Counted from the first letter of the stretch, positions 1,302 through 25,194 are shown. The stretch: 64,000 bases of DNA from Flavobacterium sp. (GCF_031422135.1 NZ_JANOQD010000014.1:12969-76968), one strand, 5' to 3'. Numbers and translations: made by a program. Notes: generated from the sequence alone by a model not told the origin.

Positions 1302-1309
1302 CCTCAAAG

Positions 1310-6602: not shown

Positions 6603-6726
6603 AAATTTAAATTAATCAAAAATAGATTCAATAAAATTAGTTACAGTTTAAGTTGAAAATCAATCAGAAAAATAAAAATAATCCAAAGGCATAGCTGTCT
6701 TGGCTAAAGCATAATAATTTACATTA

Positions 6727-9700
6727 ATGAAAAATGCGTTTATAGGTTATTCATATCAAGAACAAGTCACATCATTGATGTTGACAAAAATGGATGTTGA
6801 AAGAAGTATTATACAAATAGAAATTGAAGCCACGGTTGAACATAAATTTGATGATATAAAGTTAAATACCGAAGAAGCAGAATATTATTTTCAAATAAAG
6901 GATTTTGATAATATCTCACTTAATGATTTAATAGTTTCAGAAAATGAAATTTCAATCGCACGTAAAGTACATAAACTTTCTTCTTCGGGAACGAATGTTA
7001 TTTTTTTCAAAAATATCGAAATTACTCCAAATTGTATGGTCTTGGATATTGATGCTTACAAATTGAAAAACATCTATATTGTTTCTTTAAATCGTTTAGC
7101 AATAGACCAGAAAATTGAAGAATTATATAAAACAGACCATTTACGCAAATATATTATCGACCAATTTTTTAGTGAATGTCTTGATATCAGAAAGTTATTA
7201 ATTAAAAAAAGTGAATTACCTGTACTCAATGTTTTTAAAACTTATTTAATTGAGCCTACTGTTAATCTTACTATAGAAACATTAGAAATTGAAAACATTT
7301 TGCATATTGAAGGTAAACCAGGTGTTGGTAAAAGTCATCTAGTAGTAAATTTAGAAAACCAATATTCAAATAATATAGTTTATCGTTTTTGGGTTTCTAA
7401 CCAAGACAACGAACGTAACGAGCGATTACAGTATAATAATTTTGTGTTAGATTTCTCAAAGAAATTATTTAACAATTTAAAACCATATACTGAAATAGAA
7501 ATTATATCTAAAATTAAGGAACTGGAAAAAACAGTAATAATTGATGGATTAGATCACGTTGAAAATTATAATTCCAAAGATCTTGAAGCTTATATAGAAT
7601 TTATTGATAAGTTAAAAGAATCTTGTAAAGTAATTATTTTGAGTCGTCCTTTACAACGTGAGCTAAATTGGAAAAAACAATTGCTTGGTAATTGGAATCA
7701 GGAACAGACAAAAAAAGTATTAAATGAACTATATCACATTGAGGAATATACCAACATTGAAAAAATATACAAAATCAGTGATGGTTATCCTATTTTGGTA
7801 AGATACATTTCTGAGCAATATAAATTAAAAGGAAGTGTACCAGATTTTCAAACCTTTGATACAATTGATAAATATTATGAAAAGCTTATTGACGGACAAA
7901 AAGGGAAACTAGCACTTTCACTTTTTCTTTGCGTTCGCTCATACATAATGCAATCTGAAATAGAATTATTTTTAGAATCGATAAATTCATCTTTCGTAAT
8001 CGAATTTATAAAAGAACACCCATATCTTTTTGAACTACGACTGAACAGAATTTCACTTTTTCACGATAGTTTCATAACCTATCTACGTAAAATAAATACA
8101 AATTACAAAGCTATTGCATCAAATGTCAATTCAATAGTTTATTCTTCAATACTAATAGGAAATAAAAGATTTTTATCAAGGTTTAGGTATTTTGACTTTT
8201 CAATTGTAGACAAGAAAAATGTTGTTAAAAAATACTCTTCAATAACAGAATTTAGAATATTGATGAATGGTGTGATTGATTTTGAAGCCATACAGGACTT
8301 CTATAGTCAAATTCGCGAAACAATGCCTGAATTGTCTGCTAATGATTTAGAAATTAATGATTATTATGAATTATCGCTTATATTAAATATGGTATATCGT
8401 GATCATTTATCAACATTAAATGATTTTTATTTTACGTATTGTAAAGCGCTTTTATTTAATGGTTTTACTATTGAAGATATTACTAGTAATCGATATTTAT
8501 TTGGAATGATGTACTATATCGAAACAAATGATGGTTCCTTAATTTTAAATTTGAATAGCGACAGTCATTACGATACAAGTAGCTTTTATTATGACTTACA
8601 AAATGATGCTAATGAAGAAATATCATTTTTTGAAAAACATCGAAAGCCACTTTTAACATCAAAAATTAAAGATTTATTAAAAGATAAATCTAACTGGGAA
8701 TATAGAAAAATAATAACCTACATAATTGAAGATTTATTCATTCACGATTTAAGTAGAAAGAATTTTGAAGATTTGTATAACTCAATCAATCATTATGTAA
8801 ATGGGGATGAATACAAAGCAAATTCAATTTTAGAGAATTTTATTGTGGATTTTGGTATTGAAGACTATCAGGCAAGATGGATATTAAAAGAAGCCTATGA
8901 AAATTTATTAGCATTGGGTTATATCTCTGATAAAAATGACTATTTGAATCTTACACTCAAGGAGTATATTTTAAATAATAAAGATGTAGGAAGTTTTAAT
9001 ATGCGAGTTGAAATTTTAAATTACATACGTTTATCATTACATCACAATAAAAAAATTGACCTAGCTTCAATTTCACTTTTCTGGACAAAATATTATCAAC
9101 GGAAAGACCATACTTTGTACAGTTTATATGCTGCTTTACCTATTTTCGAAAAAAAGGGGTGTATAGAAATGTATGATTCACTTAGTTTAATTTATAAGAT
9201 TCAAGATGTTTCAGAAAAAGGGTATAGAGGACTTTTAGCAGATTATATTTTAGAAAAGACTCCTGAAGTTATCGAAAAGATTCTTGAATATTTCCATCCG
9301 TCAAACTTATCAATTTCGTGGTTTCTTTTGCCATCAGAATATATAAACGTATTACCTGACCTAGTTTATAATCTTGAAAAAGGAACTAAAATAAAATATC
9401 ACCGAACTAGTAGAAAAATTCCTTACGATGAAATCGAAAACCTACTCGACTCGAACAGACTTGAACAGTTTAGAAATGATTTAACTTTTTACAGATACAG
9501 TATTGATATTGAAGAAAAAAATCCTGCAATTAAAAAATTAAAAAGTTTAAAAATTCCATACCAAACATACAAAGACCAAAATTATAGTAGCAAGGAATCT
9601 TCAGCACTTTCGAGATTAGATCAAGGAATATTAGATGATAAAAATAAAGAAATGATTTTAGTAAAGAAATTAAAATCTTATGAAGTAGCTGCATTTAGCG

Positions 9701-9966
9701 ATGGAAATTATTCAGCACTTTCTAATCCAGACATATTTCAGGTTTTTGGTAAAGATGACATCAAAGCCAATATAAAAGAAATTATTTATAATGCAATGAC
9801 ATCAAGATTAAGAGCAATAGACCATTTCCATATTTTATGGCCATTCCCTGGTAATGTAATAAAACTTTTGGATGACAATGAAGTTGTAGATGATTTTGAG
9901 AGTTTATTTCAAAGCTTTGAGATTTTTTTAAATATGTCAATGTTTGATTTGAAAACAAATAGCTAA
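6727..9966 (+). CDS. PD-(D/E)xK nuclease + STAND ATPase with long helical C-terminus (Avs-like antiphage candidate)
   Basis: N-terminal NAFIGYSYQ...KFDDI...FQIK; Walker A GKPGVGKS; Walker B VIIDGLDH; sensor IILSRP. Confidence 0.72.
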   Translation: MKNAFIGYSYQEQVTSLMLTKMDVERSIIQIEIEATVEHKFDDIKLNTEEAEYYFQIKDFDNISLNDLIVSENEISIARKVHKLSSSGTNVIFFKNIEITPNCMVLDIDAYKLKNIYIVSLNRLAIDQKIEELYKTDHLRKYIIDQFFSECLDIRKLLIKKSELPVLNVFKTYLIEPTVNLTIETLEIENILHIEGKPGVGKSHLVVNLENQYSNNIVYRFWVSNQDNERNERLQYNNFVLDFSKKLFNNLKPYTEIEIISKIKELEKTVIIDGLDHVENYNSKDLEAYIEFIDKLKESCKVIILSRPLQRELNWKKQLLGNWNQEQTKKVLNELYHIEEYTNIEKIYKISDGYPILVRYISEQYKLKGSVPDFQTFDTIDKYYEKLIDGQKGKLALSLFLCVRSYIMQSEIELFLESINSSFVIEFIKEHPYLFELRLNRISLFHDSFITYLRKINTNYKAIASNVNSIVYSSILIGNKRFLSRFRYFDFSIVDKKNVVKKYSSITEFRILMNGVIDFEAIQDFYSQIRETMPELSANDLEINDYYELSLILNMVYRDHLSTLNDFYFTYCKALLFNGFTIEDITSNRYLFGMMYYIETNDGSLILNLNSDSHYDTSSFYYDLQNDANEEISFFEKHRKPLLTSKIKDLLKDKSNWEYRKIITYIIEDLFIHDLSRKNFEDLYNSINHYVNGDEYKANSILENFIVDFGIEDYQARWILKEAYENLLALGYISDKNDYLNLTLKEYILNNKDVGSFNMRVEILNYIRLSLHHNKKIDLASISLFWTKYYQRKDHTLYSLYAALPIFEKKGCIEMYDSLSLIYKIQDVSEKGYRGLLADYILEKTPEVIEKILEYFHPSNLSISWFLLPSEYINVLPDLVYNLEKGTKIKYHRTSRKIPYDEIENLLDSNRLEQFRNDLTFYRYSIDIEEKNPAIKKLKSLKIPYQTYKDQNYSSKESSALSRLDQGILDDKNKEMILVKKLKSYEVAAFSDGNYSALSNPDIFQVFGKDDIKANIKEIIYNAMTSRLRAIDHFHILWPFPGNVIKLLDDNEVVDDFESLFQSFEIFLNMSMFDLKTNS

Positions 9967-10080
9967 TTGACACTTCTATTGGTCTAATCAAAAAGCATTA
10001 TTTTAGTATAATCTAAACACTGTCTATCATAAATATTGAAACATTTTTCAAAAGTTCATTATTTTATAAAAAAATAACAC

Positions 10081-10132
10081 TACTTTTGATTACCTTTCAA
10101 CGCAAGATAAACCCCAATTTTTAGGGTTTATC
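10081..10132 (+). promoter_or_regulatory. Promoter -7 element and inverted-repeat operator upstream of abiEi
   Basis: TACTTTTG (Bacteroidota TAnnTTTG) at 10081-10088; perfect 9-bp inverted repeat GATAAACCC(10106-10114)/GGGTTTATC(10124-10132) 15 bp before the ATG. Confidence 0.6.
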
Positions 10133-10147
10133 CTTAAACGATTAGTA

Positions 10148-10948
10148 ATGGCAAAAAGCACCTATATTTCAGAAAACACAACACAAAATCAAATAGATTT
10201 TATGTTAATGCTTGATGATAATGAGTTAGACATCTTTACTTTAGAGGAAATCAAATCAATTGCATCAAGAGAATTTGAAAACATAAACGAGATAGTAGAA
10301 AATCTAGTACATAAAAAACTACTATCACGTATAGAACGAGGTAAATATTGTAGATACAATTTCAGGGACGAAAACGTAATTGGCTGCAAATTAACCGAAG
10401 ATTCCGCAATCGCTTATTGGTCCGCATTAAACAAACACGGTCTTACGGAACAATTTCCAAATTCTATTTTTATACAAACCACAAAAAGAAAATCAGACAA
10501 AAGTGTTTTTGGTGTTTTCTATAAATTCATTCAAATTTCAAAATCAAAAATAGTTGGAATAGAAAAATTAGGATTTGGAAACCACAGCTACCAAATGACC
10601 GATGTTGAAAAAACCATTATTGATTGTTTTGATTTACCACAATATTCCGGTGGTTATGCCGAATTAATTCGGGCATTCAATCAAGCAAACCTCAACAGTG
10701 AGAAAATGATTGCGTATTGTAAAGCCACAAAAAACATTGCTATTACAAAACGAATAGGATATTTGGCTGAATTACTAAATAAAAAAGGGATGAAATCATT
10801 TATAAACTTCGCATTAAAAGAAGTCAACGAAAAATACAATCTCTTTGACCCATTTGGTATAGAAGAAGGCGAATTTGTAAACAAATGGCGATTGAGATTA
10901 AATATAAGCAGCGAAGAAATTTTAAACATCTGTAACAAGCAATATTAA
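10148..10948 (+). CDS. abiEi: Type IV TA antitoxin / transcriptional regulator, AbiEi family
   Basis: wHTH with LSRIERGKY; IAYWSALNKHGLTEQ; TDVEKTIIDCFDLPQYSGG; coupled to the nucleotidyltransferase toxin gene. Confidence 0.88.
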   Translation: MAKSTYISENTTQNQIDFMLMLDDNELDIFTLEEIKSIASREFENINEIVENLVHKKLLSRIERGKYCRYNFRDENVIGCKLTEDSAIAYWSALNKHGLTEQFPNSIFIQTTKRKSDKSVFGVFYKFIQISKSKIVGIEKLGFGNHSYQMTDVEKTIIDCFDLPQYSGGYAELIRAFNQANLNSEKMIAYCKATKNIAITKRIGYLAELLNKKGMKSFINFALKEVNEKYNLFDPFGIEEGEFVNKWRLRLNISSEEILNICNKQY

Positions 10949-11805
10949 TGATTTTACAAAAAGAAATAGCCACCATTTCCGAACAACTAGGCGTATCGAA
11001 ATCAGTTATTGATAAAGATTGGATGTTGGGGCACTTTATAGCAGCAATATTCAACGAACCGGAACTAAAGGAAACATTAATTTTCAAAGGAGGAACTTGT
11101 TTGAAGAAATGTTGGTTTGAAGAATATAGATTTTCAGAAGATTTGGATTTTACTTCAAAGTCACAGGAATTTGAATTTACACAGAATCATTTAAAATTTA
11201 TCACAAAACATATTGAAGATAATACTGAAGTAAAAACACACATTGTTTCATTAAAACTATTACGATTTCAAGACAGACTAACAGGATATGAAGCTATAAT
11301 TAAGTTTTGGGGTGCAGACCATCCAAAAAATATAATGCCTACAACTCCAGACCGATGGCAGACAAAAATTAAAATAGAAATAATTCTCTATGAAGAAATG
11401 ATTTTTGAAGTTACAGAACAAGCAGTTAGCCACCCCTATTCTGACAACCTAGCATTAGTAAACGCAATACCTTGTTACAAAATCGAAGAAGTTTTGGCCG
11501 AAAAAATTAGAGCCTTAATCCAACGTTCTTATACAGCGCCTCGAGATTACTATGACATTTGGTACTTATCGAATAATTTCCCGGATTTAAACTGGATAGT
11601 GATTGTTGAAGCTTTTTACAAGAAAATGAAATTCAAGAATATTGAATTCACTGGAATTGACCAATTAATCAATCCAAAAAGTGATAAAGCTTTAAAAGGA
11701 GCGTGGAAAAACAGTTTGGGTCATCAAATTCAACCTGATAAATTACCCGAATATGAAGTAGTCAGAGAAAACCTTTTACTATTATTTGAGAGTATTTTTA
11801 AATAA
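10948..11805 (+). CDS. abiEii: AbiEii/AbiGii nucleotidyltransferase toxin
   Basis: LIFKGGTCLKKC...YRFSEDLDF; EEVLAEKIRAL...RDYYDIWYL. Confidence 0.92.
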   Translation: MILQKEIATISEQLGVSKSVIDKDWMLGHFIAAIFNEPELKETLIFKGGTCLKKCWFEEYRFSEDLDFTSKSQEFEFTQNHLKFITKHIEDNTEVKTHIVSLKLLRFQDRLTGYEAIIKFWGADHPKNIMPTTPDRWQTKIKIEIILYEEMIFEVTEQAVSHPYSDNLALVNAIPCYKIEEVLAEKIRALIQRSYTAPRDYYDIWYLSNNFPDLNWIVIVEAFYKKMKFKNIEFTGIDQLINPKSDKALKGAWKNSLGHQIQPDKLPEYEVVRENLLLLFESIFK

Positions 11806-11813
11806 TTTTTAAT

Positions 11814-13961
11814 ATGATATTAGTAGCTATATACATAAAAGAACATAAGTTTTTATTTGATAATCAACCTCAAATATTAAATTTTGGAGGTAGGTATTTT
11901 TATGACTTTGAATTCATTACTGATAATGAAATAACCATTTACAGGAAAAAAAATGAAAAATACATAGACAATTTTTACTCAAATGAAATTATTGCAATAT
12001 CTGGAATAGTTGGAGCAAATGGTGTGGGTAAAACAACTCTATTAAAAATAATCCATAAAAGTTATCAAGAAGATACACCTGTAATTTTTGTATACGAGAA
12101 ATTAACTGATGAAGGTATAGAATATTATATTGACAATAGAATTGGTATTATAAATGAAAATGGAAGTATTATTGAGGAATCTAAACCTATTGTTAAATTC
12201 TTTGAAAACATTGAGTACAATAAATTTGATTTCAGTTCATATACCACACTTTACTATTCACCTATTTACGACAAAAGCATTTCAGAATTTTATTCAATTT
12301 TAAACCTTGAAACTAAACATTCTGAAAAAACATTGGAGGAAATATATAGTGACAGTATATTAAAAGAAGTGATCTTTTTAAATAGTAAAGTGAGTGATAA
12401 AATTAAAATAATCTATCCAGATTTTCCAAATTATGATAACATAATTATAAAACCTAAAAAACTTCACAAAAGAGATTTTACTAAGGTTTATATAGATTCA
12501 AATTTGGGAAATCCAAATAAAGGCGAAACATTAAAACATACTATTGAAAGGGATTTAAGTGTTAAAAATTTTCCAAATCCGGTAAACCTTTTAAATAGTT
12601 ATTTATCAATATTAAAAAGTGGAAATGTGACGGATGCTTTAAAGGATATTTGGGATTTACCACAATACAAAAATGATAATGAGCAAAAATCTCATTTAAT
12701 CCACAACTCAAATAACTTCATAAAGAATATAGAAATAAGTATTTTATCATATCTTCTTCTAAATGATACTTTTGCAATAACTGATTTATCGGGTTCGTTT
12801 GATTTTGAAAAAATTTTAAAATCAAAAAGTTTTGAAGAAACCTTAAATTATATATTGGCAAAGTATATAGTCCAAACGGATAAAGGATTTTATAATAATC
12901 CAGAAGAAATTAAGATTGATGAGTATGAAAAACTAATCCAAAAATGTGATACTCTATACAATAAATTTACAGTTTTGAGCGGACTAGATGCTAAAATTAT
13001 TAAGGAGAAAATTACTATTGATATTAATGGTATCAAAGCAATAAAAGATTTTTATGATTTGATTAATAAAAATCAACACTTAATCCAGAATAATGAAGAA
13101 TATTCATACTTGAATCTTAATGTTAAAAATCAAGATACACAAGAAATACTTTCTGAAACAATTAAAGCATATACAAGGGTTAAAACATATTTTTCAAACA
13201 TCCCAATCGCAACAATTGATTTTATTGAAATTGAAGCTGATAAGAAATTATCCTTCGGAGAAAAATCGCTTTTAAACTTGTATTCAACTTTATATGAATT
13301 TACATTAGGAAAAAATCATACAAGAGAAAGTGAAAATTATTTATTGATTCTTGATGAAGCTGATTTAGGTTATCATCCACTATGGAAACGAAAATACATT
13401 GATGCTTTAAATAGAACACTTCCAGAAATATTTAATACTCTAAATGCTAAAGTTTTTGATAACATTAAAAAGAAAAAAGTAAATTCTGAACAGAAAAAAC
13501 CAAAAGTTCAAATAATTTTCACAACTCACGACCCTTTGACGCTATCTGATTTACCAAATAGTTCAATTGTTTTTCTAAAAAAAGTTAACCTTTTTAGTAA
13601 AGTATTAAAAATAGATGATGCCGAAAGACCTACAAAAACTTTCGGAGCCAACATCAGTAATTTACTTTCAGATTCATTTTTCATTAATGATGGTTTAATA
13701 GGTGATTTTGTTAAAGATAAGATTGAGAAAGTCATAATTGAGCTCAATAAATTACTTGATTTAAAAAACAATAATGTATATATCTATATAACAGAAGATA
13801 AAAAAATATTAATCAAGCAAATAATTGAAATAATTGATGAACCTATCATTAAAATGAAATTGATAGATATGTATAATACAATTTTTGAGGTTTCAATAGA
13901 AAATGAGATCAATGATTTGGAGGAAAGATTAAAATATTTAAGAAATCTAAAAAGTAATTAA
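11814..13961 (+). CDS. ABC/AAA_21-type ATPase, Septu PtuA-like (copy 1)
   Basis: Walker A GANGVGKT; signature LSFGE; Walker B/D-loop LILDEADLGYHP; H-loop TTHDPLTLSD; C-terminal TFGANI..LL. Confidence 0.85.
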   Translation: MILVAIYIKEHKFLFDNQPQILNFGGRYFYDFEFITDNEITIYRKKNEKYIDNFYSNEIIAISGIVGANGVGKTTLLKIIHKSYQEDTPVIFVYEKLTDEGIEYYIDNRIGIINENGSIIEESKPIVKFFENIEYNKFDFSSYTTLYYSPIYDKSISEFYSILNLETKHSEKTLEEIYSDSILKEVIFLNSKVSDKIKIIYPDFPNYDNIIIKPKKLHKRDFTKVYIDSNLGNPNKGETLKHTIERDLSVKNFPNPVNLLNSYLSILKSGNVTDALKDIWDLPQYKNDNEQKSHLIHNSNNFIKNIEISILSYLLLNDTFAITDLSGSFDFEKILKSKSFEETLNYILAKYIVQTDKGFYNNPEEIKIDEYEKLIQKCDTLYNKFTVLSGLDAKIIKEKITIDINGIKAIKDFYDLINKNQHLIQNNEEYSYLNLNVKNQDTQEILSETIKAYTRVKTYFSNIPIATIDFIEIEADKKLSFGEKSLLNLYSTLYEFTLGKNHTRESENYLLILDEADLGYHPLWKRKYIDALNRTLPEIFNTLNAKVFDNIKKKKVNSEQKKPKVQIIFTTHDPLTLSDLPNSSIVFLKKVNLFSKVLKIDDAERPTKTFGANISNLLSDSFFINDGLIGDFVKDKIEKVIIELNKLLDLKNNNVYIYITEDKKILIKQIIEIIDEPIIKMKLIDMYNTIFEVSIENEINDLEERLKYLRNLKSN

Positions 13962-13962
13962 A

Positions 13963-15123
13963 ATGATTAGCATAAGAGAATGTATATCAGAATCAGAATT
14001 AATTTCTGTACGAAAAAAACATATAGATTTTGTATCTTTTGAGGTTGAAAAGAGAATTGATTTTTATATCAATCTATTTGAATATTTGTCTTATTTACAA
14101 TTACACCCAAAAACTAGAACGGAAACAATAAAAAGCAAAGTAAACAAAATAATTCATCATTCTCAATATGAACCATTTATTAAAATTATTTTAATCAATG
14201 AGAAAAAATTTGATTATAGTAATCTTAAAAGAATAATCAAATACAAACCTGGTGCTGGGAATTTAACTATTGTAATTAATAGACTAAAAAAGCTAAAGAA
14301 AATTAGTAAATCAATTTTAGAAATAGACTTTAGCTATGGTAGTTTAATAAAAAGAAGATATTATGAATCCAGAAAACTCTTTTTCGCTCCGATAGACTTT
14401 TTACTAAAAAAAATATTTGACTATGAAAATTGGTTTTTAAATCTTGAACCTAATGGAGTTTGGGGACCATATCAATTAACTGAAAAACTAGGATTAAAAG
14501 TATGTTCATATTGTAATCGACAATATACTTTTAGTCTTTCAAAGGGTAAAAATAAAATTACAAGACCAGAATTGGATCATTTTTTACCGAAGAGTGGAAA
14601 TCCTCTATTGGCACTAAGTTTTTTTAATTTAATTCCTTCGTGTACAATTTGTAACAGAGATTGTAAAGGTAAAATTAATTTTAATTATCAAACTCATTTT
14701 TCTCCTTATGAACAAAATCCAAAACACGAATTAATTAAGTATGATTATTATCCAAAAACATATTTAGGTTCTATTGGTGAAACTGAAGAGTTTAGAATAT
14801 TTGTAAAAAATGACGGAGCGAAGCTTGACCCAGTATTGAAAGCAAAAATAGATGGTAATACTAAAGTTTTTGAATTAAATAAAATTATTAATGAACATAA
14901 AGATATAGTTCAGGAAATAATAAAAAAAAGACATATCTCAAATGATAACTACATAGATACATTGCAAAAAACATTCCCAGAAGCTAAACTTACACTCGAA
15001 GAAGCTTATAGGTTAGCTTATGGTAATTTTTATGGAGAAAAAGATTTTAATAAAAGACCTTTAGCTAAATTGACTAAAGACATAGCAGTTTCAATAGGTT
15101 CATTAAAAAAATATTCGAAATAA
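13963..15123 (+). CDS. HNH endonuclease, Septu PtuB-like, with N-terminal extension
   Basis: CSYC...ELDHFLPKSGNPLLALSFFNLIPSCTICN (zinc-binding HNH). Confidence 0.85.
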   Translation: MISIRECISESELISVRKKHIDFVSFEVEKRIDFYINLFEYLSYLQLHPKTRTETIKSKVNKIIHHSQYEPFIKIILINEKKFDYSNLKRIIKYKPGAGNLTIVINRLKKLKKISKSILEIDFSYGSLIKRRYYESRKLFFAPIDFLLKKIFDYENWFLNLEPNGVWGPYQLTEKLGLKVCSYCNRQYTFSLSKGKNKITRPELDHFLPKSGNPLLALSFFNLIPSCTICNRDCKGKINFNYQTHFSPYEQNPKHELIKYDYYPKTYLGSIGETEEFRIFVKNDGAKLDPVLKAKIDGNTKVFELNKIINEHKDIVQEIIKKRHISNDNYIDTLQKTFPEAKLTLEEAYRLAYGNFYGEKDFNKRPLAKLTKDIAVSIGSLKKYSK

Positions 15124-15125
15124 TT

Positions 15126-17126
15126 ATGAGTTTCCAAGTAATAGCAATAAAACCGCTTAAAGGCTGTAATAAAAAATATTTAAAACTATTGAATCCGGAT
15201 TGTACATATTATCTATACAGAGAGTTTACCATAAATGAGAATGATGATGCAATAGCTCTGGAAAAGAAAATTCCTGAAGAATTATACAATGTTGAGAGCT
15301 TAAATAATGAAAAAATAAAAATTAGTATTTCTGCAATATCTGGAAAAAATGGTTCTGGAAAGAGCACTTTAATTGAACTTTTATTTTTGGCAATCAACAA
15401 CTTTTCCGTTAAATTTAATAAGAAAAACCAAAAAGCTGACCTTACTTATGTAAATGATATTAAAGTAGAATTCTATTTTAAAACATACTCACGACAAAAG
15501 AATGAAGATGTTAGTAAATATTATAAGATTAAAGTATATGACAATGAGGTAACAATTCATCGATACAAAAAAAGTAAAAACGAATATGTGCTAAATTCAG
15601 TGCCAATTTATGAGTATAAATATAAACTTCAAGATTTTTTCTACACAGTAACAATTAACCATTCTCATTATGCATATAATACCGAAGATTTAGGTGACTG
15701 GTTAAATGGATTATTTCATAAAAATGACGCCTATCAAACTCCATTAGTCTTAAATCCTATGAGAACTAAAGGTGATTTCAAAATTGGCACAGAAAATCAT
15801 CTAGTAAAATCTAGGTTAATAGCTAATTTAGTAAAACCTACAGCTAAATTTAATTTCAAAAAACTAACAGATAATCTTGAGGCAATTGAACTTGACATTT
15901 CATTAAACGATACTAAAAGAGATAAAATTATTTATGAATTACCAACGGATGATCCACAAATTAACGAAAAAATAAAACTTAAAGACCTTAGTTTTAATGA
16001 GGATTTAATTTTTAAAAAAATCAATAAATATTATAAATTTTCTAATGATGATAATGATAAAATAAAGTTAAGAATAGCTTTCGATTATTTAAAATACAAA
16101 TTGGTTAATATTTGTGTAACCTATTCAGATTATGGTTTATATTTTGATAAAAAAAAGAAAAAATTTAATGAAGAATTATTAGATGAATATTTTAAAGAGC
16201 TTTTTATAAATGATGAAAGCCACATAACATTTAAGTTAAAACAAACACTAAATTATATCAGATTTAGCAAAAATAATATTGAAATTAAAGAGCAAAGAGT
16301 TTCACTTAAAACAATATCAGATTTTATTTCAAGAATTAAAGAAAATAAAACATATAATAAAATTAATACAATAGAATTAATTCCACCTCCATTTTTTAAT
16401 ACGGATATAATTTTAAATTCAGATAAAAATGAAAAAATAGAATTCAAAACATTGAGCTCTGGAGAAAAGCAAAAAATTTATTCAATAAGTTCAATTCTTT
16501 ATCATTTAAGTAATTTAGATTCCGTTAAAAATACTCGAACAAAAACCGCCTATACTAATGTCAATATAGTTCTAGAAGAGATTGAGCTATACTTCCATCC
16601 CGAAATGCAACGGAATTTTATAAATGATATTTTAGATAGTATTTCTGGAATAGAGCTTTATAAAATCAAAGCAATCAATTTTTGTTTTGTTAGTCATTCA
16701 CCATTTATACTTTCAGATATTCCAAAAGAAAATATTATGTTTTTAGAAAATATAGATAATAAAGCGGTACAAATTTCAGATGATAAATCAACATTTGGGG
16801 CTAATATACACGATTTGCTAAAAGATGGATTCTTTATGAAAAAGGGTTCAATTGGAGAATTTGCAAAAAATAGGATTACAAAAACTATTCAATGGCTAAA
16901 TTTAATCCGTGAAGAGAATGAAAAATCTATTAAAAATAATTTTGAATTGCTATTAAAAGAAAAAGAATATCATAAAAATATTATTGAAATTATTGACGAG
17001 CCAATAATAAAAACAAAATTATTAGAAATGTATTCGGAAATTTTCGGAAATGATGAACGCAAAAAGCATCTTGAAAATGAGATTGAAAGATTAGAGAATG
17101 AATTGAAAGTATTAAAAAATAGATAA
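15126..17126 (+). CDS. ABC/AAA_21-type ATPase, Septu PtuA-like (copy 2)
   Basis: Walker A GKNGSGKS; signature LSSGE; Walker B IVLEEIELYFHP; H-loop SHSPFILSD; C-terminal TFGANIHDLL. Confidence 0.85.
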   Translation: MSFQVIAIKPLKGCNKKYLKLLNPDCTYYLYREFTINENDDAIALEKKIPEELYNVESLNNEKIKISISAISGKNGSGKSTLIELLFLAINNFSVKFNKKNQKADLTYVNDIKVEFYFKTYSRQKNEDVSKYYKIKVYDNEVTIHRYKKSKNEYVLNSVPIYEYKYKLQDFFYTVTINHSHYAYNTEDLGDWLNGLFHKNDAYQTPLVLNPMRTKGDFKIGTENHLVKSRLIANLVKPTAKFNFKKLTDNLEAIELDISLNDTKRDKIIYELPTDDPQINEKIKLKDLSFNEDLIFKKINKYYKFSNDDNDKIKLRIAFDYLKYKLVNICVTYSDYGLYFDKKKKKFNEELLDEYFKELFINDESHITFKLKQTLNYIRFSKNNIEIKEQRVSLKTISDFISRIKENKTYNKINTIELIPPPFFNTDIILNSDKNEKIEFKTLSSGEKQKIYSISSILYHLSNLDSVKNTRTKTAYTNVNIVLEEIELYFHPEMQRNFINDILDSISGIELYKIKAINFCFVSHSPFILSDIPKENIMFLENIDNKAVQISDDKSTFGANIHDLLKDGFFMKKGSIGEFAKNRITKTIQWLNLIREENEKSIKNNFELLLKEKEYHKNIIEIIDEPIIKTKLLEMYSEIFGNDERKKHLENEIERLENELKVLKNR

Positions 17127-17129
17127 ACA

Positions 17130-18470
17130 TTGAGCAATCCCATAAACACCAATTTTAATTTCATTAAAATTCTAAATGAAGAGAAAACATACAAGTTGTT
17201 ATTTCCCGAAAGGGAAATAGGTCTTGCTATTGTTTTGATTTATGAGAAAATTAATGATGGTGTTTTTGAAGATGAAAAATTTACTGAAAATGATCTACAC
17301 GAAGCTTTTGAAAATATCTATAAAACAAAGGAACGTTATCCAAAAGAGGTTTATAGCAGTCACATTATGGACTTGCAGGAATATTTTTTAGATTACAACC
17401 AGGAAACCCAAAAGTATTTTTTCAAAGACTATGCTTCTAAATTTTGTAAACACGCTAAAGAAACTCTTATAGGTGCTTTTAATCCAACACGAATCCAAGA
17501 GATTTGTTCATTTCTTTCAAATTCATTATTAGAATCAGAGGATTCAACAGATAAACTTAAATTTTGGCTTAAAGAAACTTTTAAAAAATTTGAACCTGAT
17601 TTAAGAGAACAAATCGATTTTTTAGACCGACAAATTACCGAGTCGATTGAATTACTTAAAAAAGGAACCGATTTTACCAATCAAAATTTCCTTAATATAC
17701 TAGTAGCAACGGATTTTAGTATGAACAAAGCCCAAAAACACGTTGCGGAATTACGTTCGGCTTATTCTGAGACCAAAACAATAAGAGGTTTATTAGAACA
17801 AAAACAAAATCAAGATAATGAAATAAATGAGTTGATTTCGGAAGTGTATTCTTTTGTAAAATACATTAATGATCGATTGAGTTCAATTGATCGCAAATTA
17901 GATAGAATTCAACCTAAAATTAGACAACTATTTTCAACATTAAGCAAACCTTTATTAAGTTCAAAGATTGAAAAGTTCATTCATTTGTTATTGGATAAAA
18001 GTACTTTAGAATCTAACAGTGGCAATAAATCAATAGTGTTTCCACACAATATTATTTCACCACAAATTCATATTCCAACGCCACATTTTACAATAATTGA
18101 CAAAGACCGAGAATTATTTCCTTCCAAACCAAAAGAAAGAAAACAATATATTCAGAACGAAAAAGTAATTGAGGAAAACATTAAGAAAGCTCAAGATAAA
18201 ATAAACGAAATAGACACTATTAGAAATTGGGAAAAATATATTTTATCAGAAATAGAACTAAAAGGGAGTATCAAATTATCAGAAGTCTTCTTTAAAATTA
18301 TTGAAGAAAGTAAAAGCAGTCAAATTGCTGTGAGCGTAACTTTTAACATTATTAAATATGTTTACAGTAATAAAGACAAATATAAATTGGAGATTGATAA
18401 AGAATTAGAAACGAATAGCGAATTTAAAAACATTGCATTATGGAAAATGAAAATAATAAAATTAGTTTAA
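17130..18470 (+). CDS. jetA: Wadjet JetA/MksF-like kleisin subunit (TTG start)
   Basis: 446-aa helical protein, first of a four-gene block before MksE-like, SMC and Toprim genes; assigned mainly by position. Confidence 0.65.
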   Translation: MSNPINTNFNFIKILNEEKTYKLLFPEREIGLAIVLIYEKINDGVFEDEKFTENDLHEAFENIYKTKERYPKEVYSSHIMDLQEYFLDYNQETQKYFFKDYASKFCKHAKETLIGAFNPTRIQEICSFLSNSLLESEDSTDKLKFWLKETFKKFEPDLREQIDFLDRQITESIELLKKGTDFTNQNFLNILVATDFSMNKAQKHVAELRSAYSETKTIRGLLEQKQNQDNEINELISEVYSFVKYINDRLSSIDRKLDRIQPKIRQLFSTLSKPLLSSKIEKFIHLLLDKSTLESNSGNKSIVFPHNIISPQIHIPTPHFTIIDKDRELFPSKPKERKQYIQNEKVIEENIKKAQDKINEIDTIRNWEKYILSEIELKGSIKLSEVFFKIIEESKSSQIAVSVTFNIIKYVYSNKDKYKLEIDKELETNSEFKNIALWKMKIIKLV

Positions 18471-19087
18471 GTAGTTTCTTGTACAGTGATAATTCAGAGG
18501 ATTTATTTGCTTCAATTGATTATTTATTAAAAGATGGTGTACACTTTCAAAAAGAAGGAAAACAAATAAATCAATATAACTTTATTTCACAAAATGAAGA
18601 AAGTCTTAAACTGTATTATAACACCTTTTTCAAAGTTGATTTAGTTAAAGGAGGCGAAGACAATGCAAGCTATTATTATTTAGATTTTATAAATAATGAT
18701 CGAGGAAATATCTCTGATAAACACAGATATATGCTCAAAAGTGAGTATGTAATTATTGGATTTCTAATTTATAAAATTATGTTTATTGACCGAGAATTTG
18801 ATTTGAATTCTGTTCAAAAATTAAAAGAAAAAATCCGGCTTGAATGTGAAGATTACAAACAAGGTATTTATACATTAATTGCTAAATCAAAGAATACAAC
18901 TCCTGGTAATTACAATGATGATATAATAGATAAAACAATTCAATCGGCTCTTGAAGAATTTAAAAAAATTGGTTGGATAACATTAGATAAAGACGAGTTT
19001 CATACATTACCTGCATTCGACAGATTGCTAAAAGTATATGAAGAGTACATTATAAATATAGAGGAAACACTAAACGAACTGAAATGA
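18440..19087 (+). CDS. jetB: Wadjet JetB/MksE-like KITE subunit
   Basis: 215 aa; C-terminal wHTH (ALEEFKKIGWI...LPAFDRL); lies directly before the SMC-like gene. Confidence 0.72.
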   Translation: MENENNKISLSSFLYSDNSEDLFASIDYLLKDGVHFQKEGKQINQYNFISQNEESLKLYYNTFFKVDLVKGGEDNASYYYLDFINNDRGNISDKHRYMLKSEYVIIGFLIYKIMFIDREFDLNSVQKLKEKIRLECEDYKQGIYTLIAKSKNTTPGNYNDDIIDKTIQSALEEFKKIGWITLDKDEFHTLPAFDRLLKVYEEYIINIEETLNELK

Positions 19088-22000
19088 AAGACTATCCACT
19101 AATTAAAAGACTATCAACTTTAGGAATAGTACACCATCAGGGATTTGATTATGATTTTAATCCATTCAGAACTGATTTTGTTGGCGAAGGCGGTGCTGGT
19201 AAAAGTATGATTTCTGATATTTTACAATTAATTTGTGTTGGTACTTCGGCTTTTCATTCTCCTACAAAAGGTACAAGTACTAGAGAACCTAAAACTATGG
19301 TTTTAAGAACTGATGGTAATGGAACCGATATGGGTTATGCTTTTATAAATGTTGAGGTAGAGAAAAATAAATTTATAGTTATTGGTATTTATTTAGAAAG
19401 TGCTGGTACTTCATATATGTTTATTATTCAAGAGGGTAATAATTTTGATGACGACACTCAATTGATGCCTTTTGAAACTGTTTTAGGGTATTCCGATTTT
19501 CTCAAAAACAATCAAATATTACCAATTCAAAATTTGAAGGAACACATCAGTAATACTTTACAACTAACTTGTGAATCTTGGCATAAGACTTCAAATTATC
19601 ATAAAATTCTTTTCAAAAATGAAATATTGCCTATTGATTTGTCAATCAGTAATAAAACGTTAGACAATTATGCCAAAATTATTCAAGCATTTTCTAGAGA
19701 ATCTTTGGATATGAATAAGAGTGAAAAATTACAAAGTTTTTTATTTGGTGAGGAAAAAGAAAAGGAATTACTTGAAAAATTTAATCAAACCGTTAAAGAA
19801 CTGAATGGTGACAACAAAGAATTTGATAAAAACTTAAACGAAATAGAATTACTCACCGATAAGCAAAACGCGTTAAGTGAATTGTTGAAATTGAGAATTG
19901 AAAAAGATAAAAACGAGAAGATTTTCTTGTTAGCATCTTTTAACAATTATTCAAAAGAAGTTACTGATTCAGAAAATGAAATAAGAGAGAAAATTAATCT
20001 TTATGAAAATAGTTCCAAAATACTCATCCAATTAAAAACAAATGTCCAAGAAAAAATAATTTCAACAAATGAAGAAATTAAAATAATAGATCCAAAATGG
20101 GAAACTGCATTTAAAGAAAAAAATAAATGGGAAGAATGTGAAAACAAATTAAAAAAGTTTTTCTCTTGGTTACAGGATTTTAATTGTTCTGAAAAAGAAA
20201 TTTTAAAAGAAAAATATAATAAGCACCATCAAAATAAACTTCAAATAACACAATTAAGAGAATTGACTGAAAAGTTAAAATCAAAAAACATTTTGACTTT
20301 TTTTACCAATGAAAATTTAAAGGGTAAAAATGCACTTGTACAAGCTAATTCAAAAACAGAAGTTTACAAAAAAGAGCTAGAAATTAAAAACAAATTAAAA
20401 GCTTTAAATAATATTGAAGATAAAAAATCATTAGCACATTGGGCTTTAAATCAAACTAAAAAATTAGATTTATTCCAGGAAAGTATAATTCATAAATACC
20501 ACAATGAAAATATAAAAGTAGATGCTCCATCAGATGTTTTATTAAAATATATTCCAGAACCAAATCAATTAATAGAAAATCTTAAAATATCAAATAAAAA
20601 TGACAAAGGTTTTTGGATTGATCTAAATGGTTTAATGGAACACGTAACTTTAATTAAATCACCAATTTTTGACAAGGAAGATAGAGAAGAAATTAAGGAA
20701 TATTTTCAGAAACAAACTTGTACGATAGAAGAAGACATTTCAAATTTAGAGAGAAAATTATCAAACATTGAATTGATTATAGAAGTTTTAGAACAATTAG
20801 AAAATCCTGATGAATATGTATTTGCTTTTAATTCAAATATAGGACTAGATGAACAACTTGAAAATCACGAAATGTATGATGTTTCAAATATCATTTTTGA
20901 TGACTATTTTGATGCTTTTTCTAGAGAAAAAGAAATCAATGAACAGCTTACAAATGCAAAAACAAATTTCAAAAAATTAGAAGACGAAAAGCGAAAATTG
21001 GACAATCTACGCATTAATTTAGAGCGTGAATTAGAATCATTTTTAACACCAATAATTATTGATGAAATTGATGATTACAAAAGTAAATATAATTTTGCAT
21101 CAACTAAAAATCTTGATTTAGAGAGCTTAAATAAAGAATTAAGCGATGCTGAAGATTATTACATAGAATTGAAAAAAGCATATAATACTCAAATAAGTAA
21201 TAACAATCAAACAGCTTCTCTAAAGGAAATAGAATTAAAAATTTTAAAAATTACACATAAAAAAAATGAGATTTATAGTCAAAATCCTAATCTATTTACA
21301 GAAGAAATAGTAATGGATATTTATGATGATAATGAAATTAATGAATTAGAAAAAAAATCTATAGATGCTAATAATGATTATATTTCTAACTACAATTTTG
21401 TAGTCTATACTTTTCTTAAACAGAAGATTAATCATTATAAAGACACTGGCGATTTCAGTCCTTTATGCAGAGAAATTTTACCTAAAGAAATATTTGATGA
21501 AAAAGATTTATTAGAAGAAGATATAATTGAAAACATTTCCAATTACTTACGCAATATAAATATTAAAAATAGAAAGCTAAATAGCCGAAAGCTTCAAAAA
21601 TTAAGTGAGATTATAGACGATGTTTCAAATGAAGTAAGTAGTCAATTAATGGATATAAGAATAATAAGTAATTTTTTGAATTCAGAAGAAAAAAAAATAA
21701 CTGGCGGTCACAAGGTCGATTTAGATGTAATATACGATAATGTTTTCAAAAAAGAATGGATGAATAATTTCACTGATGAGATTAATAAAGATATTCAATA
21801 CGGTATGGATGAATCATTATTTGAAACTCTTAAAACATTTTCCACAGAATTAGAAAGTTTTCCAACGTTGGAAGAAAAATTAAAAGAAGCATTTTATCGA
21901 ACTGGTGGAACAAGAGCAAACAAACTAGAAGTTAGGGACTTACTGAATCCAAAATCATATTATGGGTTGAAGTTTTCAATTAAATCAGCACAAGGGAACA

Positions 22001-22323
22001 AAACTGCTGGTAGCACAAGTCAAACATATTCAGCAATAGCACTTTTATGTATGGCAAAGTTATCTTTAATCGATAAAACTTCAAAATCCAAAATAAGAAA
22101 AGGAATTCGTTATATGGCTATTGATGAGGCAGAAGGTCTTGGAAGTAATTTTGATATGCTATATAATATTGCAAAAGCAAATGATTACCAAATTTTATCT
22201 TTATCGATAAATCCAAATAAAATTGATGCAGAAAATCAAAATATTTATTTGTTGCACAATAGTTTAGAAGATGAAAATATAAACTACACTCCTGTGCCAA
22301 TTTTTGGATCATCAAACAATTAA
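19084..22323 (+). CDS. jetC: Wadjet JetC/MksB SMC-like ATPase
   Basis: N-terminal Walker A GEGGAGKS, long coiled coil, signature-like GSTSQ, Walker B MAIDEA. Confidence 0.8.
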   Translation: MKDYPLIKRLSTLGIVHHQGFDYDFNPFRTDFVGEGGAGKSMISDILQLICVGTSAFHSPTKGTSTREPKTMVLRTDGNGTDMGYAFINVEVEKNKFIVIGIYLESAGTSYMFIIQEGNNFDDDTQLMPFETVLGYSDFLKNNQILPIQNLKEHISNTLQLTCESWHKTSNYHKILFKNEILPIDLSISNKTLDNYAKIIQAFSRESLDMNKSEKLQSFLFGEEKEKELLEKFNQTVKELNGDNKEFDKNLNEIELLTDKQNALSELLKLRIEKDKNEKIFLLASFNNYSKEVTDSENEIREKINLYENSSKILIQLKTNVQEKIISTNEEIKIIDPKWETAFKEKNKWEECENKLKKFFSWLQDFNCSEKEILKEKYNKHHQNKLQITQLRELTEKLKSKNILTFFTNENLKGKNALVQANSKTEVYKKELEIKNKLKALNNIEDKKSLAHWALNQTKKLDLFQESIIHKYHNENIKVDAPSDVLLKYIPEPNQLIENLKISNKNDKGFWIDLNGLMEHVTLIKSPIFDKEDREEIKEYFQKQTCTIEEDISNLERKLSNIELIIEVLEQLENPDEYVFAFNSNIGLDEQLENHEMYDVSNIIFDDYFDAFSREKEINEQLTNAKTNFKKLEDEKRKLDNLRINLERELESFLTPIIIDEIDDYKSKYNFASTKNLDLESLNKELSDAEDYYIELKKAYNTQISNNNQTASLKEIELKILKITHKKNEIYSQNPNLFTEEIVMDIYDDNEINELEKKSIDANNDYISNYNFVVYTFLKQKINHYKDTGDFSPLCREILPKEIFDEKDLLEEDIIENISNYLRNINIKNRKLNSRKLQKLSEIIDDVSNEVSSQLMDIRIISNFLNSEEKKITGGHKVDLDVIYDNVFKKEWMNNFTDEINKDIQYGMDESLFETLKTFSTELESFPTLEEKLKEAFYRTGGTRANKLEVRDLLNPKSYYGLKFSIKSAQGNKTAGSTSQTYSAIALLCMAKLSLIDKTSKSKIRKGIRYMAIDEAEGLGSNFDMLYNIAKANDYQILSLSINPNKIDAENQNIYLLHNSLEDENINYTPVPIFGSSNN

Positions 22324-22327
22324 AAGT

Positions 22328-23278
22328 ATGAAAAAAATTGAATGGAAACATCTAAAAGGATTGCATCAGCTTTATAAATCAAAACAAACAAAGTTAAAAA
22401 TAACTAACAATGATTTTATTAATCAGGTCATTTTAAAACAAAAGAAACTAATAAAATTTAAGGTTGGAAATCATTCTATTATCGAAGCATCATCAAGATT
22501 TAAGGAGTATTACGAGCAGGAATTTTTAGAAACCTATGAATACTACAATAATTTCTTTGAGAAGTCGGGAATAGAAAACGATGCTAAAAAATCTTTTGAT
22601 GATGAAGATTTAAAAGCATTAATGTTTGTTTTTTATAACAAAGAGGAATTAAAAAAAAATGTAACAACAGAGAAAAAATTATCTGCTTTAATTTATAAAA
22701 ATCAAAATTCTAAATACTTATCTAATAAATTAAGTGTTAAAAATGCAGTTTTAAGAATATTAGAACTTGATGAATTTCCAGAAAAAGACCCCAAAAATAA
22801 TCAATGGAGATTTGTAGTTGATTGCCTTAATCCAAAAGTTATTGTGCTTTGTGAGAATCTTGATTGTCTAAAAGTTCCGTTAGAATATAAAAATAATAAT
22901 ATCGAATTATGGTATGTTGGTGGTAATAATACCACACCATTAGAAGACATTTCTCAAGATAAATTAAAACTTCCAATATATTATTTTTGTGATTGGGATT
23001 ATAACGGATTACTGATATATTCAAATGTCAAACAAATATTTAGATCCAAAGGAATTGAAGTCAAAATAATTCTACCACAAACACAAGAAATCGCAATCGA
23101 AGTTGGTGTCAAACATCATAAAAGTAAATGGAATGATAATGAATTCTCAAATTTGAATAAGAATGATTTTTCATTACAAGAAATCGAATTTATCAATCAA
23201 TTAATTTCGGAAAATAAATGGATTGAAGAAGAATCTTTAGATTTAATCAAACTACTGAAAAACGATAATATCATTTAA
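22328..23278 (+). CDS. jetD: Wadjet JetD/MksG Toprim nuclease
   Basis: Toprim motifs VLCENL, YVGGNN and YFCDWDYNG (DxD); follows the SMC gene; ATG at 22328 preferred over the overlapping 22304 start. Confidence 0.8.
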   Translation: MKKIEWKHLKGLHQLYKSKQTKLKITNNDFINQVILKQKKLIKFKVGNHSIIEASSRFKEYYEQEFLETYEYYNNFFEKSGIENDAKKSFDDEDLKALMFVFYNKEELKKNVTTEKKLSALIYKNQNSKYLSNKLSVKNAVLRILELDEFPEKDPKNNQWRFVVDCLNPKVIVLCENLDCLKVPLEYKNNNIELWYVGGNNTTPLEDISQDKLKLPIYYFCDWDYNGLLIYSNVKQIFRSKGIEVKIILPQTQEIAIEVGVKHHKSKWNDNEFSNLNKNDFSLQEIEFINQLISENKWIEEESLDLIKLLKNDNII

Positions 23279-23453
23279 TTACCATTATCTCATTCATCTG
23301 CACAAAATCTTCGTTTAGTCCAAGTATTCCTAAACTCAAATCTTTGTTTGCTTCATTTCACTAATTACGTTTTCAATAGCAAGAATATCTTTTTCGTTCG
23401 GTGGTAAAAAGAAAGTTTTACATTTCATAAGGCACTCCTTTGCCAACGCTCCA

Positions 23454-24347
23454 AAAAAAATTACTGGCACAGTTTTTAGAAAAAACACGTACGCTTCGCA
23501 ACTTGCGCCAGTAATTTTTTTCCCCAAGCTGTGTTACATAATTGAGTATTATAGTTCATTACAAAGCGTTTATATTGTTTTTTTTGGTTTTTGTAACGAA
23601 GCTATAATATCATTTATGTAAAACAGCCGCCACACCCAACGCGCTTGCCAGTGGCTCTAGGACAGCTTTTTTAATTGCTTCCTCGCACCAGCCGGCAATA
23701 AAAAAAGCTGTCCTTCGCCACTGTCTTTAAGAACCTTCGCTATTTCATCGGAAACTTTACAGTTGTAATTACTTTCAAGAACGTTCACGGTAACTGTTTT
23801 TAGCAACTTTGTGTTTAAATCGGTAAGTATTTGCATTGCTTTTGTAAGTGTTGTAAATCGCTTATCAACTCTATTTCTAACATTAACGACATAGGAATAA
23901 GCAATTTACAACACCCACAAAACCAAGAGTAGCCAGCAAGAGTATCATTTTTTTATTTGCCATAAAATAAGAAGTCATTGCTTCAGCGGAAAAGTTGATG
24001 CCATACCGTTACTAATAATAAGCATTGCAAGCTTCAAGCATTATCTTTCTTTTAAGTCTATGGCATCAACTTTTCCACAAAAGCAATCAGAAACATCCCA
24101 GTCAGCAAATAAAAAATGATACACTTGCACGCGCTACTGCACTGTCGCACTAGGTATTATAATGCATTGTTTTTTGAAGATGCTTTCCATTTTCAGAACA
24201 ACATTCCAATTAAATTGAAACTTCACATTTCATAAGACGATTAGGCATCCTCAAAAATCAAATCCAAGAAAGAGTAGCAAATTCTTTGGCCGGATGAAAA
24301 GCATTTTTATTTTTTGATTTGGTTTTTTTATCCATCCAAAGAATTTG
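23454..24347. repeat. Array of six long imperfect inverted repeats
   Basis: Hairpins at 23454-23521 (15-bp perfect stem), 23528-23627, 23649-23723, 23840-23922, 23936-24128 (18-bp perfect inner stem) and 24278-24347 (12-bp perfect stem). Confidence 0.85.
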
Positions 24348-24771
24348 ATACCCTTTCCGAAGACGACCATCTTCCAAATCAATTCTCATTACTTCAGATT
24401 AAATCCGATTAAACAAGAACATTCCGATTGGATATTCAAAACAAAAAATAAAAAAAAAGAGAGCAAAGATAAGTTCCAGGTATTCAGAAAAAAAAGTTCA
24501 AGCCCTAAGGGTTTTAAAAAAAATCTCCACCCTTAACGGTTCGCATCAACATTCAATTCCGATTTCACGCTCATACTTCCGATGATGTATCGGGTAGTAT
24601 TTTTTTTAAAAAACTTTTTTATCTGAAACCTTCCGCTTGAACAGACGGCTTTCTTTTTTTCTTTTTTTCTTTTGAAAAATTTTATAGGTCGAGCGTAGCG
24701 AGGCACACCTACATTTCAAGAGAAAATCCGCGAAAAATTGAAAATCTAATCAATTTTTAAAGCCGAAAGTT

Positions 24772-25194
24772 ATGACCAATTTTATCATCAAAACTCACCG
24801 AGTTGGAACGATTTATTCAAAACCGCATTTATTCCTACTTAACAAAGGGATGAACAGCGGAAAGCCACAAAAAGAGCCATTTACTAACAGTTTTGTTATC
24901 ATTTTTCAAAACGAGGAGGACTGCGAAAGCCTTTTTTTCATTGCTTATAGTTTATGGCAAACAAAATTTTGGCACCAACATTTAGTTGGTTCGGTAATCC
25001 CATTTTTACGCCTTCCAGATTTCAAAAAACAATTCAATCCGCAAGCCAGTTTAATGATGGTGGAACACGAGCAGCACCAAAAAAATGTTGCAGCTCTCAA
25101 ACTTCTGGAAAAAAAAGAAAAACAGTACAAAGAGGATATGATGCTTATAAATGACATCCGTAGAGCCATTTTATATAGGTATTGCAGAAAATAA
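24772..25194 (+). CDS. DUF6943-like protein (weak resemblance to a type I R-M specificity subunit fragment)
   Basis: NKGMNSGKP...LVGSVIPFLRL followed by an amphipathic helix; family label from recall. Confidence 0.6.
   Translation: MTNFIIKTHRVGTIYSKPHLFLLNKGMNSGKPQKEPFTNSFVIIFQNEEDCESLFFIAYSLWQTKFWHQHLVGSVIPFLRLPDFKKQFNPQASLMMVEHEQHQKNVAALKLLEKKEKQYKEDMMLINDIRRAILYRYCRK

Follow-up and report, generated by a model that had tools for sequence, protein, structure and literature searches.

The window analysed here is a 64,000-nucleotide stretch of a Flavobacterium sp. genome (GCF_031422135.1, NZ_JANOQD010000014.1:12969-76968), and the subject is a defence locus at positions 10,081 to 23,278 that opens with an AbiE toxin-antitoxin pair. 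Open reading frame (ORF) analysis yields nine co-oriented genes on the + strand: abiEi and abiEii, an ATPase-HNH-ATPase trio of the PDC-M62 type, and a divergent jetABCD set. The first-pass annotation of this DNA had proposed that the antitoxin AbiEi is a master repressor of all three defence systems. The features of the locus are given below in window coordinates, with distances in nucleotides (nt) and protein lengths in amino acids (aa).

10081-10088, + strand: promoter box of the Bacteroidota -7 type, TACTTTTG (P_abiE), scoring 12.5 bits with a genome-trained position weight matrix (PWM)
10088-10150, no strand: two-block palindrome of 63 bp, the presumed AbiEi operator, with a conserved symmetry centre and covariation
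10148-10948, + strand: abiEi, COG5340-type antitoxin and winged helix-turn-helix (wHTH) repressor, 266 aa
10948-11805, + strand: abiEii, DUF1814 nucleotidyltransferase toxin, 285 aa, overlapping abiEi by 1 nt
11814-13961, + strand: PDC-M62A, ATPase of the ABC/AAA_21 type, 715 aa, 8 nt after abiEii
13963-15123, + strand: PDC-M62B, HNH nuclease, 386 aa, 1 nt after the ATPase gene
15126-17126, + strand: second PDC-M62A-like ATPase, 666 aa, 2 nt after the HNH gene
17130-18470, + strand: jetA-like gene with a TTG start, 446 aa, 3 nt after the second ATPase gene
18440-19087, + strand: jetB, MksE-like, 215 aa, overlapping jetA by 31 nt
19084-22323, + strand: jetC, SMC/MukB-like ATPase, 1079 aa, overlapping jetB by 4 nt
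22328-23278, + strand: jetD, Toprim nuclease, 316 aa from ATG 22328, 4 nt after jetC
23279-24771, no strand: gene-free stretch of 1.5 kb with no ORF of at least 90 aa, closing the unit at the inner edge of the island

The nine genes and their junctions agree exactly with the first-pass annotation, the jetC-jetD gap of 4 nt holding for a start at ATG 22328. The jetD ORF opens at TTG 22304, and its homologues start at the position of ATG 22328. All genes from 3735 to 23278 lie on the + strand, and the G+C content of this region is 24-30% against about 33% in the flanks. The intergenic region before abiEi spans 9967-10147 (181 nt). Close relatives of the locus are found in F. cellulosilyticum, F. 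restrictum and F. luminosum. An Rfam scan over 9900-24800 returned no family. A terminator scan over 6500-24500 returned none, even after jetD, and is therefore uninformative on the absence of terminators inside the unit.

The first two genes form an AbiE system, consisting of a wHTH antitoxin with a C-terminal antitoxicity domain and an overlapping DUF1814 gene downstream. AbiEi matches the PADLOC profile of that name (5e-96) and, at the cut-off, Pfam AbiEi_4 (25 bits). A sequence search of the PDB found nothing for AbiEi and a fold search succeeded: its AlphaFold2 (AF2) model (pLDDT 87, pTM 0.83) was matched by Foldseek to 6y8q_A, the AbiEi of S. agalactiae (E 2.3e-8), and to 1zel_A, which is Rv2827c (TM 0.61). 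AbiEi is a two-domain winged-helix antitoxin whose modelled fold is that of characterised autorepressors. AbiEii matches Pfam PF08843 (9.5e-39) across 4-235 of 238 profile positions and the corresponding PADLOC profile (1.5e-88).

The trio that follows matches the PADLOC profiles PDC-M62A (9e-64), PDC-M62B (8e-141) and again PDC-M62A (1e-50), and the Pfam HNH match of the middle protein is weak. PDC-M62 is a PADLOC candidate system made of a Septu-like ATPase (A) and an HNH nuclease (B); both are present here, whereas the additional ATPase gene gives the order A-B-A, which recurs in two of the related loci (designated by the prefix L; here L014 and L017). Another PDC-M62-like ATPase and HNH pair, with 31-45% identity, lies on contig C33 of the same genome (C33:4270-7018).

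The last four genes are read as a divergent Wadjet. They resemble Wadjet/MksBEFG in gene order, sizes, an MksE domain, a MukB-like N-terminus and a JetD/MksG Toprim fold with an E...DxD motif, but JetA, JetB and JetC match no PADLOC Wadjet profile. JetB matches Pfam MksE (3.2e-19), and JetC barely passes the threshold for the MukB N-terminal family MukB_N (24.5 bits, cut-off 23) and has no match in a single-sequence search of the PDB. JetA, which in Wadjet would be kleisin-like, matches no family: it has no match in Pfam, NCBIfam or, by profile, the PDB, and only a weak off-family PADLOC hit to DruC (2e-4), and its assignment is based on its place and length, which are conserved in front of jetBCD in 10 related loci. 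The sequence match of JetD is weak (PADLOC JetD3, 9e-6). A profile search of the PDB found nothing for JetD and a fold search succeeded; the top Foldseek matches of its AF2 model (pLDDT 80) are the MksG nuclease 8b7f (E 2.4e-5), topoisomerase VI subunit A and JetD 7til. Its residues E184 and D230-W-D232 are invariant and form the E...DxD motif of the Wadjet Toprim nuclease.

A strong promoter candidate precedes only the first of the nine genes. The TAnnTTTG element earlier noticed upstream of abiEi is present as TACTTTTG. In this genome, TAnnTTTG has a density of 12.3 per kb at -30 to -21 of start codons versus 0.79 per kb in coding sequence (about 15-fold), from which it follows that this organism relies on the Bacteroidota -7 element and has short leaders. 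A scan for sigma-70 promoters was dropped as uninformative (108 promoter-like sites versus 119 expected), and a model built from this genome was used instead. This PWM was trained on genes with a free upstream region, with the island left out. Among first genes the abiEi site at 10081 ranks at the 86th percentile and among operon-internal genes at the 99th, and no other strong PWM site lies 150 nt or less from any of the nine starts. For the other eight genes, the highest scores over this distance are -2.5 to +4.6 bits, which is the range of genes inside operons (median -0.2). The exact TAnnTTTG motif occurs inside the operon at chance level (8 seen, 7.1 expected). The eight downstream genes have no recognisable promoter of their own. 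The absence of a site is weak evidence, as the PWM finds a 6-bit site for only 45% of first genes.

Related loci show the same pattern. The -7 motif recurs at -66/-67 in many, not all, relatives of the abiE locus. Where systems are fused in a chain, the head gene scores strongly with the PWM, as for an abiEi subtype in L017 (13.2 bits) and for SIR2 in L018 and L019 (10.4-10.9 bits); at jetA junctions in fused loci the scores are -9.8 to +1.0 bits, the window's own jetA having +1.0.

Between the -7 box and the start codon lies a palindrome that is probably the operator of AbiEi, judging by its conservation and symmetry. The perfect 9-bp inverted repeat that had been reported here is present as GATAAACCC (10106-10114) and GGGTTTATC (10124-10132) with a loop of 9 nt; of 2000 dinucleotide shuffles of the intergenic region, 9 contained a perfect repeat 9 bp or longer with 3 or more G:C pairs. 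These are the inner arms of a larger structure with outer arms at 10089-10093 and 10145-10149 and its centre at 10119; it starts on the final base of the -7 box and ends on the G of the abiEi ATG. We compared 86 distinct upstream sequences of the 266-aa AbiEi subfamily from across the Bacteroidota. A single symmetry centre, 29 nt before the ATG, is common to 78 of the 86, and both the inner block (-41 to -34 with -24 to -17) and the outer block (-59 to -51 with -7 to +1) are complementary in 50-78 of these 78 sequences. Arm positions covary: one pair is C:G in 58 sequences and T:A in 18, with only 2 broken, and elsewhere A:T pairs alternate with G:C.

The core AAACCC-N9-GGGTTT has 2 copies in the 3.56-Mb genome (0.09 expected), and both precede an abiEi gene. 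The second abiEi/abiEii pair lies on contig C22 (C22:66034-67691, equal to L130:11035-12692) and encodes proteins with 94% and 92% aa identity to those of the window. Its promoter is nearly identical to that of the window, and its operator differs only at the inner-arm edge and in the loop. Because the two operators are nearly identical, the two AbiEi proteins should cross-repress, and the C22 protein should repress P_abiE in trans if the palindromes are bound as predicted. Neither the island nor the genome holds any further operator copy, and thus there is no sign of trans sites besides the second abiE.

The operator also varies together with the protein. In L109, L115, L123-L126 and L128 the variant AAGACC/GGTCTT replaces AAACCC/GGGTTT, and the eight substitutions specific to this class all fall in AbiEi residues 5-50, in the wHTH domain. 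The N-terminal domain of AbiEi groups by operator class more than the C-terminal domain does; in L109, the former clusters with the AAGACC class and the latter with the common class. Such a pattern points to exchange of operator and wHTH domain as one unit. The covariation of operator class and AbiEi is not counted as proof of binding, given the physical linkage between the operator and the 5' end of abiEi.

Comparison of related loci places the borders of the modules at start codons. For both the M62 and the jet cassette, homology to other genomes sets in at the start codon, so these cassettes bring no promoter region of their own. Homology between the window and L003 begins at the TTG of jetA, and that between the window and L017 begins at the ATG of M62A, behind a non-orthologous AbiE pair. 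In L002/L014, from a Bacteroidota metagenome-assembled genome, abiE and jetABCD are 89-99% identical to the window, whereas the intervening M62 genes are only 37-45% identical. In L003/L015 (F. restrictum), the slot between abiE and jetABCD is filled by DRT (a UG6 reverse transcriptase) and a nitrilase. Across the three slots (window 11814-17126, L002:11711-16634, L003:11721-15844), abiE and jetABCD are conserved modules that frame a variable slot with borders at start codons. In L017:3077-16145 (Flavobacterium luminosum), an AbiE pair of 202 and 330 aa heads a PDC-M62-jetABCD block that is about 80-90% identical to that of the window, and its -7 box TAAATTTG is overlapped by an inverted repeat of its own, TTTGTCCC-N16-GGGACAAA. 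The window type of jetABCD occurs in Flavobacterium, Chryseobacterium and Pedobacter (L014-L023), often 3-49 nt behind another system, which may be PDC-M62, DRT, or SIR2-HerA with a 341-aa protein. In L022, PDC-M62 directly follows jetD. In several genomes, then, both Wadjet and PDC-M62 stand behind another system and have no upstream region of their own.

To survey the position of abiE within its unit, we took 57 loci whose pair is intact from 80 Bacteroidota species genomes. None of 39 co-directional upstream neighbours lies within 60 nt (minimum 96 nt), whereas on the downstream side 15 of 51 loci have a co-directional neighbour at most 30 nt away and 29 of 51 have one at most 100 nt away. 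Gene calls of another source gave downstream gaps of 0, 7, 8, 14 and 67 nt. From this asymmetry it follows that abiE always opens its transcription unit and frequently does not close it; roughly one third to one half of the related loci show the unit continuing past abiEii into further genes. A PWM site of at least 6 bits precedes none of the 15 tightly coupled downstream genes, versus 40% for abiEi itself. The genes that follow are mostly defence genes: restriction-modification (R-M) of types I, IIG and ISP, BREX, Avs1, DRT, KAP and STAND NTPases, PIN and DUF4365. In L050:1592-7988 and L051, brxA-brxB-brxC begin 14 nt after abiEi-abiEii, which there occupy the usual position of BrxR. Non-defence chromosomal neighbours tend to stand further off (33-78 nt), and one of them, 46 nt away in L093, has a 9.2-bit site of its own.

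On balance, we regard as the best explanation of the whole that the nine genes form one transcription unit started from P_abiE and repressed by AbiEi on the palindrome. It is probable that most transcription of the M62 and jet genes comes from P_abiE, and we lean slightly towards AbiEi exerting material control over them. In the proposed mechanism, transcription of all nine genes would start at P_abiE, and AbiEi would bind the 63-bp palindrome as two inverted monomers and repress this promoter. The PDC-M62 and jetABCD cassettes would have been joined to abiE at start codons; since they have no upstream region of their own, their transcription would depend largely on read-through from P_abiE. 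With AbiEi present, expression of the operon would be low and homeostatic, and a lack or dilution of AbiEi, as when the island has just reached a new cell, would derepress the operon.

The proposal of a master repressor is therefore retained in part. The autorepressor fold, the covarying palindrome, the lack of a recognised downstream promoter and the start-codon borders all speak for it, and the independent internal promoters that would have spoken against it did not appear as strong PWM sites before any of the eight downstream genes, within the roughly 45% sensitivity of the model. The likeness to a WYL/BrxR regulator that was drawn with it holds less well, given that the abiE module and operator also stand alone, as does jetABCD, and that AbiEi has no recognised ligand domain. 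The coupling has the appearance of cargo being captured repeatedly by a portable promoter cassette that represses itself, and not of a dedicated signal-sensing regulator of the WYL/BrxR type, because the same abiE module and operator also occur alone and jetABCD elsewhere has an intergenic region of its own.

Three other explanations were weighed. The first, that abiE mainly stabilises the mobile island or adjacent cargo by addiction and affects downstream transcription only incidentally, is somewhat unlikely as the chief explanation. AbiE is known to stabilise plasmids and an integrative and conjugative element (ICE) (PMC3985639, PMC11062541), related loci reside on mobilisable elements with MobC, relaxase, coupling protein and RteC, and each of two islands of this genome carries one abiE copy. 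Addiction is, however, compatible with a shared AbiEi-repressed unit rather than exclusive of it, and it leaves unexplained why abiE is always first in its unit and why defence genes so often lie 30 nt or less behind it.

Several observations weigh against a single AbiEi-controlled unit, and the first of them lend themselves to a second explanation: that abiE is an autonomous bicistron whose antitoxin controls its own pair only, that M62 and jetABCD are transcribed mainly from unrecognised promoters in the preceding coding sequences, and that the tight spacing is mere compaction of a one-directional defence island. Canonical AbiE has been described as a bicistronic autoregulated operon (PMC3985639). 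abiE with the same operator is a stand-alone pair in L005-L007 and L011, and on C22 it is the last cargo gene of a second island, followed by non-coding DNA. jetABCD is a stand-alone unit in L016 and L021-L023, where it has an intergenic region to itself, and stand-alone jetA loci reach just 1.5-3.6 bits with the PWM; the sensitivity of about 45% also leaves room for weak internal promoters that could go unseen. In addition, the -7 box lacks its G in some close relatives (L002, L004, L008), and the downstream gaps of the survey follow a longest-ORF rule that may understate distances. Exact TAnnTTTG motifs inside the operon, at 12767, 16937, 21090 and 22146, would be candidates for internal promoters, but they occur at chance rate and far from the start codons to be served, and the one nearest jetA (16937) is not conserved in L002. 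Set against autonomy are also the gaps of only 8 and 3 nt at the borders between systems, the start of cassette homology at start codons, the lack of 6-bit sites among the 15 tightly coupled genes when abiEi itself has one in 40%, and the looser spacing of non-defence neighbours together with the promoter-like site of the L093 gene. We therefore consider an autonomous bicistron unlikely.

A third explanation, in which the palindrome acts as a hairpin in the 5' leader RNA for mRNA stability or start-codon access and not as a DNA operator, draws on the folding of the inner arms at -11.6 kcal/mol, on the AUG within the outer right arm and on one-sided changes in the sense strand (G:T versus A:C, 14 versus 9 in the inner and 27 versus 7 in the outer block, position 25 excluded), yet it is very improbable, since the fold reaches a z-score of just -1.7, the RNA would lack the outer left arm (10089-10093), which by usual Bacteroidota spacing lies at or upstream of the likely transcription start and in L060-type relatives overlaps the -7 box itself, the two-fold symmetric 26-bp arms with a 9-bp spacer fit known AbiEi operator architecture, and the change of operator class travels with the wHTH changes in AbiEi, which physical linkage could also explain. 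The wobble excess was dropped as a test of RNA versus DNA, the independent events being too few.

A common unit repressed by AbiEi shares features with several characterised systems. Like AbiE of Streptococcus agalactiae and Lactococcus and Rv2827c/Rv2826c (MenA3/MenT3) of M. tuberculosis, it begins with a wHTH antitoxin gene followed by an overlapping DUF1814 toxin gene, and its presumed operator is a long inverted repeat over the transcription start region. Known AbiEi operators comprise two 23-bp inverted repeats over the promoter, +1 and downstream region, in the layouts 23-3-23 and, for Rv2827c, 23-13-23 (PMC3985639, PMC7319586); that of the window would be about 26-9-26. The solved AbiEi and Rv2827c proteins have only 12-16% identity to the window AbiEi, a member of the 266-aa Bacteroidota subfamily. 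The window unit also differs from known AbiE in having a Bacteroidota-type -7 promoter, and whereas known operators lie over -35/-10, its palindrome lies between the -7 box and the ATG. Finally, known AbiE is bicistronic, whereas the window unit continues into seven more co-oriented defence genes, which are separated by at most 8 nt and lack a recognisable promoter.

WYL regulators are an established means of control in defence islands (PMC9122601). Like BrxR, CapW and other regulators of this type, AbiEi is encoded 5' of diverse defence systems and has inverted repeats in its own promoter. However, it lacks the wHTH-WYL-WCX architecture: Pfam finds only AbiEi_4, the fold is that of AbiEi/Rv2827c rather than WYL, and neither a WYL domain nor another recognised ligand-sensing domain is present. 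Here the antitoxin of a toxin-antitoxin pair is the repressor, its toxin gene lies between repressor and cargo, and regulation of the cargo is presumed. The locus may accordingly be regarded as an AbiE member whose operon architecture departs from the family norm, and as a BrxR-like 5' regulator in action, not in membership. The AbiEi protein of ICESsuHN105 from Streptococcus suis is a precedent for control beyond its own operon, because it binds oriT and the SezAT promoter (PMC11062541). Both antitoxins are encoded on mobile islands and would reach beyond their own operon, presumably so in the window; the S. suis protein binds separate palindromes in trans, whereas coupling in the window would be by read-through in cis, the second abiE having the only other operator. 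A literature search turned up no account of AbiE heading a longer defence operon as its promoter-proximal module.

The surroundings of the unit are those of an island. Upstream of abiE lie genes for two large NTPases, a TPR protein of 955 aa (3735-6602) and a STAND-like protein of 1079 aa (6727-9966); neither matches a PADLOC profile, and both have just weak promoter-like sites. The left flank of the window (1008-3488) contains an HTH_17 gene, a 280-aa gene and AAA-like genes. A mobilisable element encoding MobC, relaxase, coupling protein and RteC carries a related abiE locus (L037:1585-7899), which together with the left-flank genes suggests that the islands are mobile. On C22, abiE is preceded by an MmeI-like R-M enzyme, SIR2-HerA and an HNH gene. 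Part of the stretch after jetD (about 24450-24650) is conserved after the C22 abiE copy, beside a DUF6943-like gene, and 23279-24771 looks like island backbone rather than cargo. In some relatives, abiEii (L005, L012) or both abiE genes (L013) are split by frameshifts, with the operator retained.

Current understanding of how defence islands are activated, and of how their cost is contained, comes largely from a few regulator families, namely WYL/BrxR/CapW and some sigma/anti-sigma pairs. As a tentative generalisation, rather less probable than the reading of the locus itself, this AbiE subfamily may serve in Bacteroidota as a portable promoter-operator-addiction cassette and a general 5' controller of defence operons on mobile islands. 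Its cargo would then include R-M, BREX, Avs, DRT, PDC-M62 and Wadjet. The antitoxin would keep the operon low and allow a burst on entry into an AbiEi-free cell, the toxin would penalise promoter-proximal loss, and paralogues in one genome would cross-repress each other's cargo. If an antitoxin routinely supplies both promoter and repression, the default view of AbiE as a stand-alone bicistron could not be maintained, and a simple rule would be available to predict co-regulated defence genes in Bacteroidota. Derepression in an AbiEi-free recipient would, if this is true, provide a route to establish a costly Wadjet or R-M system after horizontal transfer.

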